Of a stretch of 64,000 nucleotides of DNA, positions 40,076 through 61,472 are shown one piece after another. Positions within the stretch are counted from its first letter, which is position 1; the number at the start of each line of letters is the position of its first letter. This DNA is from a virus. Taxonomy: Duplodnaviria > Caudoviricetes. Both the position numbers and the translations under genes were made by a program. The notes under the pieces were generated by a model. The model saw only the letters and a program-made list of their open reading frames with translations, was not told the origin of the DNA and searched no databases. The DNA lies in the IMG/VR virus record IMGVR_UViG_3300031088_000782, positions 160,001-224,000 of that record; one strand, 5' to 3'.

Positions 40076-41971
40076 TTATGCCCTATACACAAAAATTCTA
40101 TTACCAGCAGTATAAATAGGTAAGAACCCATTATCTAACATTATCTCTCTATTATTCATTTTAGTTCTGTCGAAATCATTACCAAAATCAAGACCTAATA
40201 ATCTATCTGCACCAACCTTGACAACAGAAGAATTAGAATACTTCTTTTTTGTCTTCAAATTATAATGAACCAAAATCGGGCCATTCGATTTCATTTCATA
40301 AAAACCCAAAGAATTCAAGAATATATTTTTCTTAGTAGTATGATTGAAGTCAACATAACTTACAACAGAAGAAGGTTTTGCATCTTTTAAAAATAATTGA
40401 AAAAGCTTTCCCGAAGCCCCATGAATGATATAATCATCACGAACAGCATATCTAATAAACTCATATTCATATTTGCTATCAAAACGAGATTTGCCGAAAG
40501 TAGCAACAGACATCAGTTGATCATCTTGATAAAGCCCATAACAATAAATCTGTTTTTTAGCAACACCCTGAATATGAAACCTATGCAAGAAAATGTTAGC
40601 AGTCTCCTGATCGATTCTTCGACATGTCAATTTTCGAGCAGAAAGTTTAACAACATTCTTATTTGTTTTCATATTAATCATTTTAAGAATAGCATCCTCA
40701 GTATCCCAATCATAAACCTGAATCAAAGAAACATCATTATTGTGTGCTGCCATAGCTCTTTGATAGTGGTAGTATTTCGTTGGCTTTCTGTGCTTAGAGC
40801 AATTAACTATTTTGCAATTTGAAATAATACATCCAAATGACTTGACAATATTGTGAGAAATAGTAGGATTAATGTCAATTAACAAGCTACGATCATTAAT
40901 ATTTAGATCAAACTGAAATTTACCAACAGGATATTCAAAATCTATATTATATACATCATTACAGGACTCTTTTATTAGTTGAGCAAAAGCTTTGTTTAAA
41001 TTAGAGACTTTTCTGCTTTTTTGGTTTTTCCCATTTTTTAAATTTTCAGAAAATGTTTTTTGAGCCTTAGCAACAATGTCTGAATTCAGCATAACGTTTT
41101 CAAAACCATATTTTTCAATATTTGTCTTGATTCTCTTTTCTTTAACAATGTCTGATTGATTAGGATATTCAACGCCATACTTTTCCATGACAGTTTCCAT
41201 AATCTTTTTCTTAATAATTTTAGAGCCAAAAGGATTTTTTGATCCATACTTCTCCAAATTTGTATCATCTGCGCGTTTTCTGATTTCGGGATCTTGAATA
41301 GCGTATTTAACCCCATATTTTTCAAGATTAGTTCTAACGGTCTTTTCTTTGAATTCATCAAGCATCATAGGATGTTCAACACCATACTTGTCAATATTAG
41401 CTTTAATAATCTTCTGTTTTAATTCATCAGTTGATTGAGGATTCTCTACCCCATAATTTTTTAAACTTGTCTGCTTTCTCTTTTCTTGTGCATTTTTTCC
41501 ATTAATAATTTTAGATGCACAATCACTGCTACAATATTTTCTTTTAGACAAAGGATCTGGAAAATCAAATTTATTTCCGCATTCTAAGCATTCTTTTTGG
41601 TGGATATTTGTGCAGTATTTTTGAGTTGCTGAAGTTGGAATAAATCTTGTTTCGCACAATTCGCAAACTCTTTCCTCTGCTGATTCAGAAAAAGACTTAT
41701 TTCTTAATTCCTGTTCACACTTTAATGAGCAAGTTTTTGAAACCTTATAGAATTCTTTATTGCAAATAACACAATTACGCTTTTTCTTTTGAGAGGCACC
41801 ACGACATTTAGTAGAACAAAATACTTTATCAACCTTCATAGTTGATTTTAATTCAAATTCATTATCACAAACTAAACAATTTTTAAAATGTTTTTTAGCA
41901 CAACGCTTTTTTCTTCGTTTATCAGGTGTAAAAAGATCATTACATACTTCACAACAAATCTGATATTCCAT
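40076..41971 (-). CDS. Free-standing endonuclease-like protein: Zn repeats, KYGVE repeats, PD-(D/E)XK-like domain, C-terminal Mom/GNAT-like domain
   Basis: CxxC..F.PT..Q..C..H repeats; TNLEKYGV repeats; FDLNI..LLIDINPT..H; HIQG..YGLY..VATFG..YEFIRY..GASGKL..VSYVD. Confidence 0.7.
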   Translation of the reverse strand: MEYQICCEVCNDLFTPDKRRKKRCAKKHFKNCLVCDNEFELKSTMKVDKVFCSTKCRGASQKKKRNCVICNKEFYKVSKTCSLKCEQELRNKSFSESAEERVCELCETRFIPTSATQKYCTNIHQKECLECGNKFDFPDPLSKRKYCSSDCASKIINGKNAQEKRKQTSLKNYGVENPQSTDELKQKIIKANIDKYGVEHPMMLDEFKEKTVRTNLEKYGVKYAIQDPEIRKRADDTNLEKYGSKNPFGSKIIKKKIMETVMEKYGVEYPNQSDIVKEKRIKTNIEKYGFENVMLNSDIVAKAQKTFSENLKNGKNQKSRKVSNLNKAFAQLIKESCNDVYNIDFEYPVGKFQFDLNINDRSLLIDINPTISHNIVKSFGCIISNCKIVNCSKHRKPTKYYHYQRAMAAHNNDVSLIQVYDWDTEDAILKMINMKTNKNVVKLSARKLTCRRIDQETANIFLHRFHIQGVAKKQIYCYGLYQDDQLMSVATFGKSRFDSKYEYEFIRYAVRDDYIIHGASGKLFQLFLKDAKPSSVVSYVDFNHTTKKNIFLNSLGFYEMKSNGPILVHYNLKTKKKYSNSSVVKVGADRLLGLDFGNDFDRTKMNNREIMLDNGFLPIYTAGNRIFVYRA

Positions 41972-42049
41972 AATGAATCCTAACTAACTTATTTATATAT
42001 TGTTTACTACTATTATTATAACAATTTTAAAGGAAAGAAAGCATTAATT

Positions 42050-42169
42050 ATGAAAATAAAATCAATAAAAGAAATTGCTCCTGAACCTGCAAGATGTATT
42101 GAAGTCGATTCACCTGACCGACTTTTTGCTGCCGGAGGAGAATTTGGGAATGCTTTCGTAACTCACAAT
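42050..42169 (+). other. Split-intein C fragment (40 aa)
   Basis: MKIKSIKEI..ARCIEVDSPDRLF..FVTHN followed by +1 Ser: blocks F and G. Confidence 0.88.
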
Positions 42170-59361: not shown

Positions 59362-59528
59362 CGGTTTATAAAATTTTATTCATCGTTCATATTATCAGAA
59401 TTTTTCGCAACAGTCAAGAAAAGAAATATTGATAAAATGAGCCGTGTAGAGATATTATTTTTTGTAAACAATTTGTTAAAATGATATAAGAAATTGTTGT
59501 TTTTTTTGAATTTTCTGGGAGCTTGTAG

Positions 59529-61472
59529 ATGAGAATATATGCGAGAAAAACCTTTATTGAAGAGATTGAATATGGTGTTGCCCAAAAATTTGTTTCTGAA
59601 AATCATATGCAAAAAGAATCAAAACACAATGGAAAAATTCTGTCTTTTGGATTGTTTCATGAAAATAATTTAGTAGGAGTTGCTCAATTCTGCTATCCAC
59701 GAACACCGGCTAAAAAACGTGAATACACTACTGAGCTTTTAAGATTGTGCTTCAAGAAAAACATTTATATTGTCGGTGGCGCATCTAAACTTATTAAATA
59801 TTACATAAATTTACATAACCCTACTGACATTTTTACTTATCAAGATACTACCGGCGAGAATACTGATGTTTATGAGCAGTGCGGGTTTATTTTGAGATCA
59901 ATTGAAAAGAAAAAGCAATATCTTGTCAAAAATGGATTAACTATTCATCAAGGACATAATAATAGCGCAGAAAGAGAAGAGTATTATACTATTTCTCAAG
60001 TAGTCAATCGTGGCCCCGACTCCTTGCTTGGAACAAAACTTGGAGAACAATTTCATAAAAAGCCTGATGGAACATTATCAAACAAAAGAAAAACAAATAT
60101 TGAGCTATTTATTGATTTAGGGTGGCATATAGAGGAAACCACTGGAGATAAAATATATGAGTGGTTTAATCCTAATTTAAGTTTCTACACTTACAGAATA
60201 ACTGCTTCTGATTCTGACAAATACTACTATGGTGTTCGATCTATTAAAATCCCTTTTGATGAATTAACTATTAAAGACTGTTTGAAAGATGATTATATGG
60301 GTAGCGGAGGAAGAAAATTTGCTACATGGAGAAATAAACACAAAGCTAATCTTAGAAAAAATATTATCGAAATGTTCCCAAAGAAGTTTATGGCATACAA
60401 CAATGAGAAAATATTAGTTGGCGATTCTTATTTAACAGATCCTTTGTGTTTGAACAGTTCAGAAGGTGGTGTTCAATATGAGAAAAAATTTAGCGAAGGA
60501 AGAAATAAATTTTATCTTAGTGAATGTCAAACTCATGGATTAGTCAAACATATTAATGAAAAATGCGTTACTTGTGCTGTCTATAAAAACATTAGCTATC
60601 AAATGTGCGAAATTCATGGATTAACTAAGTTTAGAGGAGCTTTCTGCTCTAAGTGCGTTTCCGCAAAAAACCTTAAAATAGAAGTGTGTAGAGTTCACGG
60701 GGAAACAAAGCATATTAACAAAAAATGTTTAAAATGCGCTAATCAATCTTCTTTCATCGAAAAATTGTGCGATAAGCATGATCTTGTTGTTCATCATGGA
60801 AATGTATGCTTAAAATGCGTTAAAGAAAATTCTATCACTATGCAAATATGCCTAACGCATGGTGAAACAAAGCATGTTGGAGAAAAATGCTTTAAATGCT
60901 TCACAAGTGAAAGTTTCTCAACACGATTTTGCAAAATTCATGGTGAAACTGTATTTCGTGGAGACAATTGCGAAAAATGTAAAAATGATAATTTGGTCAG
61001 TGTAAAAACATGCCCTACGCATGGTGAGGTTAAGCATATCGGAGATAAATGCTATAAGTGCCGAAAAAACGTTTTTAATATTCAGATGTGTGATATTCAT
61101 GGTGAAACAAAACACCAGAAAGGTTCCTGTTTGCAGTGTACTAACGACAAGAAAATAACAATTAAAATTTGCTCTACTCACGGAGAAACAAAACATTTTG
61201 GAAATACTTGCGGAAAGTGCAATTCTTTGAAAATGTTCTATTTTGACACCTGTTCAGTTCATGGAGAAACGAAGTTCAAAAAGAATGAATGCGTCAAGTG
61301 TAAAGCACAGAAAGCTTTTGTTATTAAAGTTTGTGAAATTCACGGTGAGACTAAATTCAAAGGAAAATCTTGTTGTCAATGTGTTAGCGAAAAGACAGCT
61401 CACAAAAGATGGCATAAAGAAAAACAAAAACAAGGCTGTGTTTATTGCGAAAAGATTATTCAATCAGTTTGA
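59529..61472 (+). CDS. Mom/GNAT-like domain + GIY-YIG nuclease + 11 tandem zinc fingers
   Basis: Paralog of 57246-58775 with 11 CxxH-x9-CxxC units and terminal HKRWH..CxxC. Confidence 0.77.
   Translation: MRIYARKTFIEEIEYGVAQKFVSENHMQKESKHNGKILSFGLFHENNLVGVAQFCYPRTPAKKREYTTELLRLCFKKNIYIVGGASKLIKYYINLHNPTDIFTYQDTTGENTDVYEQCGFILRSIEKKKQYLVKNGLTIHQGHNNSAEREEYYTISQVVNRGPDSLLGTKLGEQFHKKPDGTLSNKRKTNIELFIDLGWHIEETTGDKIYEWFNPNLSFYTYRITASDSDKYYYGVRSIKIPFDELTIKDCLKDDYMGSGGRKFATWRNKHKANLRKNIIEMFPKKFMAYNNEKILVGDSYLTDPLCLNSSEGGVQYEKKFSEGRNKFYLSECQTHGLVKHINEKCVTCAVYKNISYQMCEIHGLTKFRGAFCSKCVSAKNLKIEVCRVHGETKHINKKCLKCANQSSFIEKLCDKHDLVVHHGNVCLKCVKENSITMQICLTHGETKHVGEKCFKCFTSESFSTRFCKIHGETVFRGDNCEKCKNDNLVSVKTCPTHGEVKHIGDKCYKCRKNVFNIQMCDIHGETKHQKGSCLQCTNDKKITIKICSTHGETKHFGNTCGKCNSLKMFYFDTCSVHGETKFKKNECVKCKAQKAFVIKVCEIHGETKFKGKSCCQCVSEKTAHKRWHKEKQKQGCVYCEKIIQSV

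Follow-up and report, generated by a model that had tools for sequence, protein, structure and literature searches.

The window analyzed here, a 64,000-nt stretch of a 309-kb viral record (IMG/VR IMGVR_UViG_3300031088_000782), encodes five genes that couple zinc-binding repeats to a nuclease domain, four of them together with a Mom-like GNAT domain of about 200 residues. All five open reading frames singled out in a preliminary description of this DNA exist at the coordinates listed below, and Pfam identifies their neighbors as FtsK-like, GyrB and GyrA proteins.

40076..41971 (-), P0001, 631 aa, predicted Hef-type free-standing homing endonuclease: three Zn ribbons, five DUF7487 "KYG" repeats, Vsr-like nuclease, Mom-like domain
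40652..40984 (-), Vsr-like (EDxHD) nuclease domain of P0001, residues ~330-440
40079..40651 (-), Mom-like GNAT domain of P0001, residues ~441-631 (domain HMM, E 1.5e-87)
42050..43198 (+), FtsK/SpoIIIE-like ATPase fragment (Pfam FtsK_SpoIIIE, E 4e-13)
43265..45259 (+), P0002, 664 aa, predicted Hef-type homing endonuclease: Zn ribbons, DUF7487 repeats, Vsr-like nuclease (~44177-44539), Mom-like domain (~44540-45256)
53748..54887 (+), P0003, 379 aa: Zn ribbons and Vsr-like nuclease (~54540-54884)
54961..57096 (+), gyrB (Pfam DNA_gyraseB, Toprim, GyrB_C), with homing endonuclease genes on both sides
57246..58775 (+), P0004, 509 aa counted from the ATG: Mom-like domain (57246-57890), GIY-YIG (57891-58199), six 27-aa CxxH-x9-CxxC zinc modules (58230-58685)
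58708..61473 (no strand), presence/absence block: minus-strand orf161 and the P0005 cassette, without counterpart in the relative L027
59468..59488 (+), 21-bp direct repeat ACAATTTGTTAAAATGATATA, upstream copy, promoter-like, 40 nt before the P0005 ATG
59529..61472 (+), P0005, 647 aa: Mom-like domain (59529-60176), GIY-YIG (60177-60482), eleven zinc modules (60525-61382)
61472..61492 (+), 21-bp repeat ACAATTTGTTAAAATGATATA, downstream copy, in the gyrA promoter region
61531..63987 (+), gyrA (Pfam DNA_topoisoIV, E 4.5e-118)

The start of P0004 is an ATG within a longer frame (57195-58775), and gene callers give the same 509 aa. The FtsK/SpoIIIE-like fragment is flanked by two divergent endonuclease genes, of which it is likely the homing-target neighborhood; one relative (L028) repeats the triad of a minus-strand endonuclease gene, FtsK and a plus-strand endonuclease gene.

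P0001 carries the Zn and KYG motifs and matches Pfam DUF7487 (E 8e-26) and phrog_3339 "homing endonuclease" (E 2e-63), as does P0002 (E 3.5e-12 and 1e-61, respectively), residues 83-662 of which match Hef-like homing endonucleases of Campylobacter, Acinetobacter and Pseudomonas phages by tblastn; the C-terminal arrangement of the Mom-like domain is indeed that of Hef. The Vsr-like nucleases belong to the PD-(D/E)XK superfamily. The only PDB sequence match of the Vsr-like profile is I-Bth0305I (3r3p; E 0.002), with which the nucleases of the window share the motifs E-x-D, E, H, Y-H and D. In our nuclease alignment (A4), the D, H and YH residues are invariant in all ten copies and kept in P0001, which has Q-F-D and I-D-I where E45 and E58 are nearly invariant, and the motifs of P0003, directly upstream of gyrB, are intact. 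The GIY-YIG domain of P0005, modeled separately (pLDDT 93.5), has I-TevI as its best match by both Foldseek (probability 0.97) and VIA-align (Z 6.8), followed in the structural comparison by PD-T4-3 (Z 6.0), T4 EndoII (4.2) and UvrC (4.1). Pfam SegE_GIY-YIG matches a paralog with E 4e-4, with Pfam scores under the cut-off, and hhalign against the single I-TevI and SegG sequences was not significant. Both a Glu and an Asn are near-invariant in these domains, which carry YxY and YYYG motifs; a counterpart of the catalytic Arg that is canonical for GIY-YIG enzymes was not located in them. Among homologs, the zinc arrays comprise 4-13 modules.

The Mom-like domain lies C-terminal to the Vsr-like nuclease in P0001 and P0002 and N-terminal to the GIY-YIG domain in P0004 and P0005, so that the former type is built as reader-Vsr-Mom and the latter as Mom-GIY-YIG-reader; wherever it occurs (four of the five genes), it adjoins the nuclease on the side opposite the DNA-reading part. 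The four copies have 24 invariant columns in common, and an HMM built on them recovers all four (E 1e-87 to 1e-105; P0004, E 3e-105) and a further six in the rest of the record (E 1e-14 to 1e-69). Together with the I-Bth0305I and I-TevI matches, this bears out the earlier claim of one domain on two unrelated nuclease folds; P0003, described as lacking it, indeed gave no match to the domain HMM. Against Pfam Mom (PF25680; cut-off 27.1 bits), only P0005 exceeds the threshold (35.6), with P0002 (25.0), P0004 (22.4) and P0001 (17.5) below it; P0005 also has a PHROG "Mom-like" match (E 2e-11), and P0004 matches phrog_314 "homing endonuclease" over residues 228-506. The relationship to Mom, for which a structural search had been proposed as a check, emerged from that search: by Foldseek, the structure that best matches an AF2 model of the P0005 domain (pLDDT 92.5) is Mu Mom (8bv8; E 2e-8 over 223 columns). 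Assignment of the domain to the Mom-family GNATs is therefore supported. Modeled jointly, the Mom-like and GIY-YIG domains form a single confident unit (pTM 0.82). No stand-alone Mom-like domain was found, only four fragments.

In an alignment of 248 of these domains from both architectures, which are only 25-30% identical, only 19 columns are conserved at 93% or more. All six equivalents of Mom H58 (246 of 248), E108 (244), R111 (248), S124 (244), D149 (244) and Y159 (247) fall among these columns; these residues matter for Mom activity (PMC13219725). In the same alignment, nothing corresponds to the essential R151 of Mu Mom (the position is a gap or mostly D), and Y59, W48 and W181 are likewise not kept. 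The most divergent copy is that of P0001, which departs from Mom at two of five catalytic positions: G replaces the S124 equivalent (with an S one residue earlier) and F that of Y159. A G-G-A turn occupies the GNAT pyrophosphate-binding loop before the catalytic Ser, where Mom has S-E-S, and an insertion with its own invariant motifs stands at the place of Mom's DNA-binding insertion. On sequence grounds, the five kept active-site residues favor an active enzyme and the loss of R151 argues against chemistry identical to that of Mu Mom; the domain is probably still catalytically active.

The GIY-YIG-linked copies group together in a tree of the domain (one clade, SH-aLRT 100), indicating a single change of architecture: the fusion of Mom and GIY-YIG arose once. 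The description of the domain as "shuffled" is thus an overstatement. The Vsr-Mom architecture is that of the published Hef type, whose genes are homing endonuclease genes (PMC3239194, PMC2988022). The combination of Mom, GIY-YIG and zinc array was absent from 50,697 phage records, and we found no paper describing it; it is this combination that is new, the Vsr-Mom pairing being already known.

The record holds 14 such endonuclease genes, with differing zinc arrays, of which 10 have the Mom-like domain (domain HMM) and four, all of Vsr type, do not. Comparison with syntenic relatives shows their sites to be polymorphic. By blastn, window positions 54934-58707 are collinear with L027 7693-11462, and 61474-63847 with L027 11608-13974; on its right, the intervening block runs up to the beginning of the downstream 21-bp repeat copy, an exact repeat of which 0.02 matches per window are expected by chance. 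L027, in which gyrB, one endonuclease gene and gyrA follow each other without the P0005 cassette, has one copy at the gyrA site, with one mismatch. An ortholog of P0004 lies between gyrB and gyrA in both L026 and L027; the site of P0003 is empty in L027 and occupied in L026 by a different, 619-aa DUF4379-Vsr-Mom gene, and homologs adjoin other genes in L017 and L021. As the relatives are only 72-91% identical, the empty-site comparison shows polymorphism and not an observed homing event. Clustering of selfish elements at ftsK and gyrB/gyrA, as suggested previously, agrees with these polymorphic or replaced genes at fixed intergenic sites. Given the variable and replaced sites, the 14 paralogs and the Mom-less copies, the five genes are very probably free-standing homing endonuclease genes rather than a restriction-modification system.

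The latter, as a single-chain system, had been the other option in the preliminary description. The Mom-like domain would then modify the whole element genome, and the nuclease would degrade unmodified DNA of the host or of competitors, in defense or offense. Such a role has been predicted for jumbo-phage Mom-REase fusions (PMC7824862) and would agree with the conserved catalytic residues, and homing and marker exclusion likewise amount to an attack on related co-resident genomes. We nevertheless consider it improbable: the long, different zinc arrays of the fourteen paralogs imply long, distinct sites and not frequent restriction sites, the nuclease-only paralogs in the same record imply that the nuclease is tolerated without a modifier in cis, in many relatives only a decayed remnant of the Mom-like domain is left, the genes occupy polymorphic or replaced intergenic positions by conserved genes, and the family is annotated as homing endonuclease, as shown for Hef (PMC2988022). 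The Mom-less paralogs and decayed remnants also make the Mom-like domain an accessory to the nuclease, not an obligatory partner. In the wider GIY-YIG subfamily, 53 of the top hits are without a Mom domain, and a further 53 have ~100-185 residues ahead of the GIY-YIG, an N-terminal remnant that is shortened or no longer detectable; catalytic equivalents are kept in only 11-18 of the latter 53, the W212 contact motif in 52.

That so many remnants without catalytic residues retain the W212 motif suggests a structural role beside the GIY-YIG, and the domain might transfer nothing at all, serving instead as a DNA-binding, base-flipping or scaffold module that positions the nuclease head, with residues kept for DNA contacts or fold. 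The missing R151, Y59, W48 and W181 and the confident two-domain model would suit such a module, and accessory DNA-binding domains are routine in homing endonucleases (PMC2677866). We think it rather unlikely, however, since the near-invariant columns are exactly those of Mom H58, R111, S124, D149 and Y159 (244-248 of 248), a Ser/His/Asp/Arg/Tyr set rarely held so tightly by a pure binding role at such low identity, and since all five vanish together in decayed domains, as expected of one activity. An active GNAT could also have an acceptor other than the element's own DNA, such as cut target DNA ends, tRNA or aminoacyl-tRNA, or protein, for instance in recombination-biased repair or host manipulation: Mom's GNAT relatives FemX and TacT use or modify tRNA, co-substrates are unpredictable from structure (PMC13219725), the domain lies next to the nuclease, at the end that cleaves, and the G-G-A turn in place of S-E-S may point to acyl-CoA rather than Gly-tRNA as donor. 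However, sequence profile and structure alike put the domain closest, among characterized proteins, to a modifier of adenine in dsDNA, the insertion with invariant motifs stands where Mom has its DNA-binding insertion, and the findings point to no specific alternative acceptor; we therefore give this possibility little credence.

The best explanation overall, to which we assign a probability of about 0.55, is that these are homing genes composed of a zinc reader, a nuclease head and a DNA-acting Mom-family module. They lie between genes, next to conserved ones of DNA metabolism (the ftsK fragment, gyrB, gyrA), the variable zinc part (Zn ribbons with DUF7487, or 6 to 11 CxxH-x9-CxxC modules) most likely setting the target site for a constant Vsr-like or GIY-YIG cutting head. 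The nuclease would cut endonuclease-free alleles, and repair would copy the gene in. The Mom-like domain may still be an acyl- or aminoacyl-transferase whose substrate is DNA at the cleavage site or close to it; its most plausible task would be to mark the element's own sites, which would then escape cutting. Such self-protective DNA modification is a role that we propose only tentatively. The module would be helpful but dispensable, with a chemistry or donor somewhat unlike that of Mu Mom.

Among known systems, P0001 and P0002 most resemble Hef and the Hef-like free-standing homing endonucleases that jumbo phages and relatives of T4 encode (Hef of phage U5, Sandegren et al. 2005; assigned to the Vsr-like family by Taylor et al. 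2011, PMC3239194), with which they share a match to phrog_3339 along the whole of both proteins (E 1e-61 to 1e-63), a Vsr-like catalytic core and a free-standing position adjoining conserved genes; genes annotated as Hef-like in phages of Campylobacter, Acinetobacter, Yersinia and Pseudomonas match them through the Mom-like tail. They differ in that their identity to deposited phage genes does not exceed 28% and in their carrier, a 309-kb element that yielded no terminase or capsid family, and P0003 differs in having no Mom-like tail. The position beside a broken FtsK gene resembles the split-intein "fractured gene" loci, where endonuclease genes of Vsr-like or GIY-YIG type reside (Dassa et al. 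2009, PMC2677866). I-Bth0305I (PDB 3R3P) is intron-encoded, binds DNA through NUMOD/HTH and has no Mom-like domain. With Mu Mom (PDB 8BV8), which performs Gly-tRNA(Gly)-dependent N6-adenine hypermodification (PMC13219725), the domains share the GNAT fold, the six residue equivalents from H58 to Y159 and an insertion between the last strands; unlike Mom they are fused to a nuclease, are ~15% identical to it, lack the R151, Y59, W48 and W181 equivalents, carry an insertion of ~66 residues with other motifs and have no com-type regulator. Iyer et al. (2021, PMC7824862), in a paper where the terms GIY-YIG and "homing endonuclease" do not occur, predicted momylation-based restriction-modification for Mom-REase fusions in group 2 jumbo phages; these fusions show the same union of a Mom-family domain and a restriction-endonuclease fold as P0001 and P0002, but the polymorphic sites, many paralogs and Mom-less copies seen here favor homing genes over defense. 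P0004 and P0005, finally, share with I-TevI and the T4 Seg proteins the GIY-YIG fold, a nuclease N-terminal to the DNA-binding part and a free-standing position near essential genes, and depart from them in the Mom-like domain ahead of the nuclease and in a DNA reader made of 6-11 tandem 27-aa CxxH-x9-CxxC modules rather than of NUMOD/HTH.

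Five large ORFs built on one modular plan, P0001 to P0005, lie in the window between 40076 and 61472, set among genes of DNA metabolism and with an NAD-dependent ligase encoded upstream.

Endonuclease ORFs and neighbouring genes in the window.
40076-41971, minus strand: P0001, 631 aa; N-terminal Zn ribbons, DUF7487 (KYG) repeats (Pfam E 8e-26), nuclease and a C-terminal domain of ~200 residues
42050-43198: FtsK/SpoIIIE-like fragment, neighbour gene
43265-45259: P0002, 664 aa; layout as P0001 (DUF7487 Pfam E 3.5e-12)
53748-54887: P0003, 379 aa; Zn ribbons and nuclease, ending there
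54961-57096: GyrB, neighbour gene
57246-58775 (from ATG): P0004; N-terminal 200-residue domain, small second domain and six 27-residue CxxH-x9-CxxC modules
59529-61472: P0005; N-terminal 200-residue domain, small second domain and eleven 27-residue CxxH-x9-CxxC modules
61531-63987: GyrA, neighbour gene

Only part of the Pfam ATPase domain is matched by the FtsK/SpoIIIE-like ORF, which is flanked by two divergent homing endonuclease genes. A promoter and terminator scan of 39800-45500 gave no excess over shuffled expectation.

The 200-residue domain had been called Mom-like in the preliminary description from its motifs, and profile and fold comparisons bear this out. An HMM built from the four window copies recovered these at E 1e-87 to 1e-105 and detected six more in the 309,534-bp record. 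With the Pfam Mom family (PF25680, gathering cut-off 27.1 bits), P0005 scores 35.6 bits, above the cut-off, P0002 25.0 bits by hmmscan and 27.1 in the genome scan, P0004 22.4-24.9 bits and P0001 a weak 17.5 bits; P0005 is also the sole match to the PHROG family "Mom-like DNA modification protein" (E 2e-11). Alignment by hhalign to the single Mu Mom sequence left the register unchanged (E 0.001, probability 21%). A PDB sequence search with the four-sequence alignment returned spurious histone matches only, and the Mom structure was reached by fold search alone: the AlphaFold2 model of P0005 residues 1-335, computed from 37 homologues (mean pLDDT 92.5, pTM 0.82), has the two chains of Mu Mom (8BV8, A and B) as its best Foldseek matches in the PDB (E 2e-8 and 3e-7 over 223 columns), with SpeG and other GNATs ranking below. 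This is the comparison that had been proposed as a check on the call. A two-copy complex prediction of the domain (alignment A5) scored 0.00, or "no answer."

It was not until 2026 that the chemistry of Mom was worked out. The Mu enzyme moves glycine from Gly-tRNA(Gly) onto the N6 of adenine in double-stranded DNA in an active site lined by H58, Y59, R111, S124, D149, R151, and Y159; it cannot do without R111, S124, or R151, and it also needs an HTH-like insertion (PMC13219725). We aligned Mu Mom with 248 of the Mom-like domains, 122 linked to GIY-YIG and 126 to Vsr-like nucleases. The equivalent of R111 is kept in every one, those of Y159 and H58 in 247 and 246, respectively, and those of E108, S124, and D149 in 244 each. 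Only 19 columns are conserved at 93% or more across both architectures, and Mom active-site positions are among them, which speaks for the domain having remained an enzyme. Within the window, P0002, P0004, and P0005 carry the equivalents of H58, R111, S124, D149, and Y159; P0001 departs at two of the five, with G for S124 (a serine stands one residue earlier) and F for Y159. Other features of Mom are not retained: at the position of R151, essential in Mu, each of the 122 GIY-YIG-linked domains has a gap and the Vsr-linked domains mostly have D, in a loop whose alignment is uncertain, and the S-E-S at the GNAT pyrophosphate loop is replaced by a G-G-A turn, so that the donor or the chemistry may differ from that of Mom. 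Among the 248 domains, Y59 is not conserved (R/S/K or I/V/L at the aligned position), the dimer residue W48 could not be aligned, and W181 has not been retained. An insertion of ~66 residues with two helices (model residues ~134-199) is placed like the HTH-like insertion of Mom, before the last strand, as a possible counterpart of Mom residues 175-209, and has invariant G-P-D and R-K-x-N motifs of its own.

Two nuclease folds accompany this domain, as the preliminary description had noticed. The Vsr-like nuclease, of the PD-(D/E)XK superfamily, shows the pattern E-x-D, E, H, Y-H, D in an alignment of ten copies, all from the 309-kb record, in which D47, H65, Y92, and H93 are invariant and E45, E58, K96, and D112 nearly so. 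Its profile has a single match in the PDB, I-Bth0305I (3R3P, E 0.002), whose structure represents the family of Vsr-like homing endonucleases; the phage Hef-type enzymes have been assigned to this family too (PMC3239194). P0001 and P0002 match the "homing endonuclease" family phrog_3339 end to end (E 1e-61 to 1e-63), and their alignment to annotated Hef-like genes of cultured phages extends through the Mom-like tail; the C-terminal arrangement had been likened to that of Hef-like phage endonucleases, and it is indeed of this type.

The second domain of P0004 and P0005, modelled separately (108 residues, pLDDT 93.5), has the I-TevI catalytic domain as its top three Foldseek matches (probability 0.85-0.97, TM 0.51-0.64, E 0.06-0.16). 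VIA-align likewise ranks I-TevI first (Z 6.8, a moderate value for a domain of 108 residues; rmsd 3.0 over 82 aligned), followed by PD-T4-3 (Z 6.0), T4 EndoII (4.2), and UvrC (4.1), with Slx1 and Eco29kI also among the lower ranks. In 37 sequences, the YxY and YYYG motifs are formed by invariant Y220, Y222, Y232, Y233, and G235, and conservation reaches 90% or more at E293 and N309. The expected helix after YIG holds no invariant arginine in these sequences at the place of the canonical catalytic residue; in a short local alignment that is not significant, the position of I-TevI R27 falls on the residue preceding the invariant W267, which is N or T. Sequence profiles give little: Pfam GIY-YIG (PF01541) scores 13.7 bits on P0004, under its cut-off of 22.6, SegE_GIY-YIG (PF19835, cut-off 25) reaches a weak 19-21 bits, with the paralogue at 28028 as its sole match, hhalign against the single I-TevI and SegG sequences was not significant, and a PDB sequence search returned spurious antibody and gp120 matches only. 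Given matching fold and motifs, with the canonical arginine not located and Pfam scores under threshold, we treat the domain as a divergent Seg-like GIY-YIG, probably an active nuclease.

The two architectures are mirror images, DNA reader, Vsr, and Mom in one and Mom, GIY-YIG, and reader in the other, with the Mom-like domain outermost and the nuclease in between. In both, the Mom-like domain abuts the nuclease, distal to the DNA reader, and so counts as part of the cutting head. Fourteen such genes are found in the 309-kb record: three with Mom, GIY-YIG, and zinc array, seven with Zn reader, Vsr, and Mom, and four with Zn reader and Vsr only. The zinc arrays of homologues range from 4 to 13 modules. 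Other Vsr-type paralogues in the record (G000:C1:123416-127096, 141302-143437, 88972-91239, 225040-226428, and 244726-245910) have four to six DUF4379 treble-clef zinc fingers as reader, so that within this element one nuclease, with or without the Mom-like domain, has been joined to at least three kinds of reader.

The Mom-like domain is dispensable, being absent from those four Vsr paralogues. For the other fold, a search of 1.84 billion representatives with the GIY-YIG-domain profile yielded 3,503 relatives; the best of them include 26 with a complete Mom-like domain and 53 without any. A further 53 carry ~100-185 residues before the GIY-YIG, and this N-terminal domain is shortened, lacks the insertion and in some is undetectable; catalytic equivalents are retained in only 11-18 of this second group. 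The alignments point to an active site that has been retained on both nuclease folds and yet lost repeatedly.

It had also been proposed that the domain was shuffled onto the two folds. That two unrelated folds carry it holds; repeated shuffling between nuclease types is rejected, since in a maximum-likelihood tree of 80 domains and Mu Mom every GIY-YIG-linked copy falls into one clade (SH-aLRT 100) on a long stem, and a single change of architecture suffices. On this topology either the domain or the nuclease was transferred once, long ago, and the zinc arrays diversified afterwards. Domains of the GIY-YIG-linked clade almost never occur alone (four fragments only, on contigs of 1.5 kb or less). 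The Mom and GIY-YIG architecture is not rare in metagenomes: a set of 5.8 billion proteins holds 232 homologues, and the same shape is found in three ESM-Atlas clusters, with 75, 397, and 112 members, the last with GIY-YIG and a NUMOD3 tail. In 50,697 deposited phage records the two-domain head had no covering match, and a search for related loci with the Mom and GIY-YIG alignment found one other IMG/VR contig only. In the ESM-Atlas the Mom-like domain also occurs combined with HTH_28 (64 members) and as a 221-aa protein of its own (170 members).

Contigs encoding close homologues show three haplotypes at gyrB-gyrA. In a 64-kb contig (L027/L028) a 159-aa gene directly precedes gyrB, which is followed by one Mom and GIY-YIG gene and then gyrA, and the site of P0003 is empty. 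By blastn this contig (L027) follows window 54934-58707 in collinear order and picks up again at 61474, so that window 58708-61473, with orf161 and P0005, is without a counterpart there. In a 68.7-kb contig (L026), window 53742-54944, which holds P0003, is exchanged at the same site for a different gene of 619 aa with DUF4379, Vsr, and Mom domains. P0005 is bracketed by an exact 21-bp direct repeat, ACAATTTGTTAAAATGATATA, at 59468-59488 and 61472-61492 (2004 bp apart), one copy of which forms the right junction of the P0005 block; the repeat looks promoter-like, with a TGATATA element. L027, which lacks the P0005 cassette, has a single copy before gyrA with one mismatch, and the downstream copy in L026 is degenerate.

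Metagenome contigs scanned with the repeat for an empty site gave four unrelated AT-rich contexts only, and no endonuclease-free allele was found above 72% identity. Phage records contained no megablast match to gyrB, and GyrA retrieved no related loci among viral contigs. In more distant elements the Mom and GIY-YIG gene adjoins a zeta-toxin gene (L017) or lies between ssb and recA (L021). Three further differences were observed among these contigs. A 161-aa minus-strand ORF of no matched family (window 58876-59361) accompanies the P0005 cassette, being present in L026 and not in L027. Between its two Mom and GIY-YIG genes, L026 has an extra 336-aa FtsK_SpoIIIE-like gene (11703-12713) that is missing from the window (58808-58862). 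The PDDEXK_1 (Cas4-like) gene of L027 (2712-4868) encodes 718 aa with a weak LAGLIDADG_3 match, against 325 aa in the window orthologue (49452-50429), which suggests an intein or endonuclease insertion.

The record itself is an IMG/VR "provirus" excised from a contig of 681,645 bp; searches for Terminase_6N, Gp23 (T4-type capsid), and Phage_capsid (HK97-type) found none, and it may not be a phage.

Variable presence, allelic replacement, and many paralogues with different reading arrays indicate, from gene content and comparison, that the five genes behave as free-standing homing endonuclease genes. The preliminary description, whose observation of a domain common to two nuclease folds is confirmed, is supported in part in its interpretation: it had taken the genes either for self-protecting selfish elements or for a non-methyl restriction-modification system, and the latter is not supported. 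A domain of Mom type beside a nuclease may suggest genome-wide restriction-modification; the proposal is disfavoured by the four paralogues with nuclease and no modifier, by how common Mom-less relatives and relatives with a decayed Mom-like domain are, by the long and variable zinc arrays, and by the polymorphic, intergenic positions.

What the Mom-like domain does in a homing endonuclease is a separate matter. One domain with Mom active-site residues intact, found on two unrelated nuclease folds in mirror-image order, points to a job tied to DNA cutting or homing generally rather than to one enzyme. It may be purely structural or grip DNA; the near-invariant catalytic positions speak rather for an enzyme. 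Less probably, it may have an acceptor other than DNA. We prefer to see it as a putative accessory transferase acting at or near the cleavage site, most plausibly in protection of the element's own sites. In its full form, which we hold tentatively at about 0.3, a putative DNA acyl- or aminoacyl-transferase would be brought by the zinc-module array to one long site, making the protein a site-specific nuclease and hypermodifier whose mark would immunize its own site.

If this full form is true, homing endonucleases would have a first mechanism of epigenetic self-immunity, and the protein would be a base-modifying enzyme that is natural, modular, and "zinc-finger-guided," its recruitment being independent of nuclease fold. 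Site-specific marking of DNA by the domain would make these proteins programmable DNA modifiers of natural origin and would give the homing genes an immunity mechanism so far unrecognized; should it not mark DNA in this way, they would be one more ordinary case of selfish nucleases accreting domains. There are thousands of Hef-type homing endonucleases, and no study known to us has addressed experimentally why a Mom-like domain is part of them. Its role is a clear question, directly testable with a few constructs from this locus.

Set against known systems, the Vsr and Mom part is ordinary. It is the Hef type, exemplified by Hef of phage U5 (see PMC2988022). Fusions of Mom with a restriction endonuclease were also noted in jumbo phages by Iyer et al. 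2021, who predicted a restriction-modification function for them (PMC7824862). The type with Mom, GIY-YIG, and zinc array is apparently unpublished, as our literature search returned no paper that joins Mom or GNAT with GIY-YIG. The triad of a minus-strand endonuclease gene, an FtsK fragment, and a plus-strand endonuclease gene, found in the window and again in L028 (3378-4157), is similar to the "fractured gene" loci from which Vsr-like and GIY-YIG endonuclease genes were originally reported (PMC2677866).
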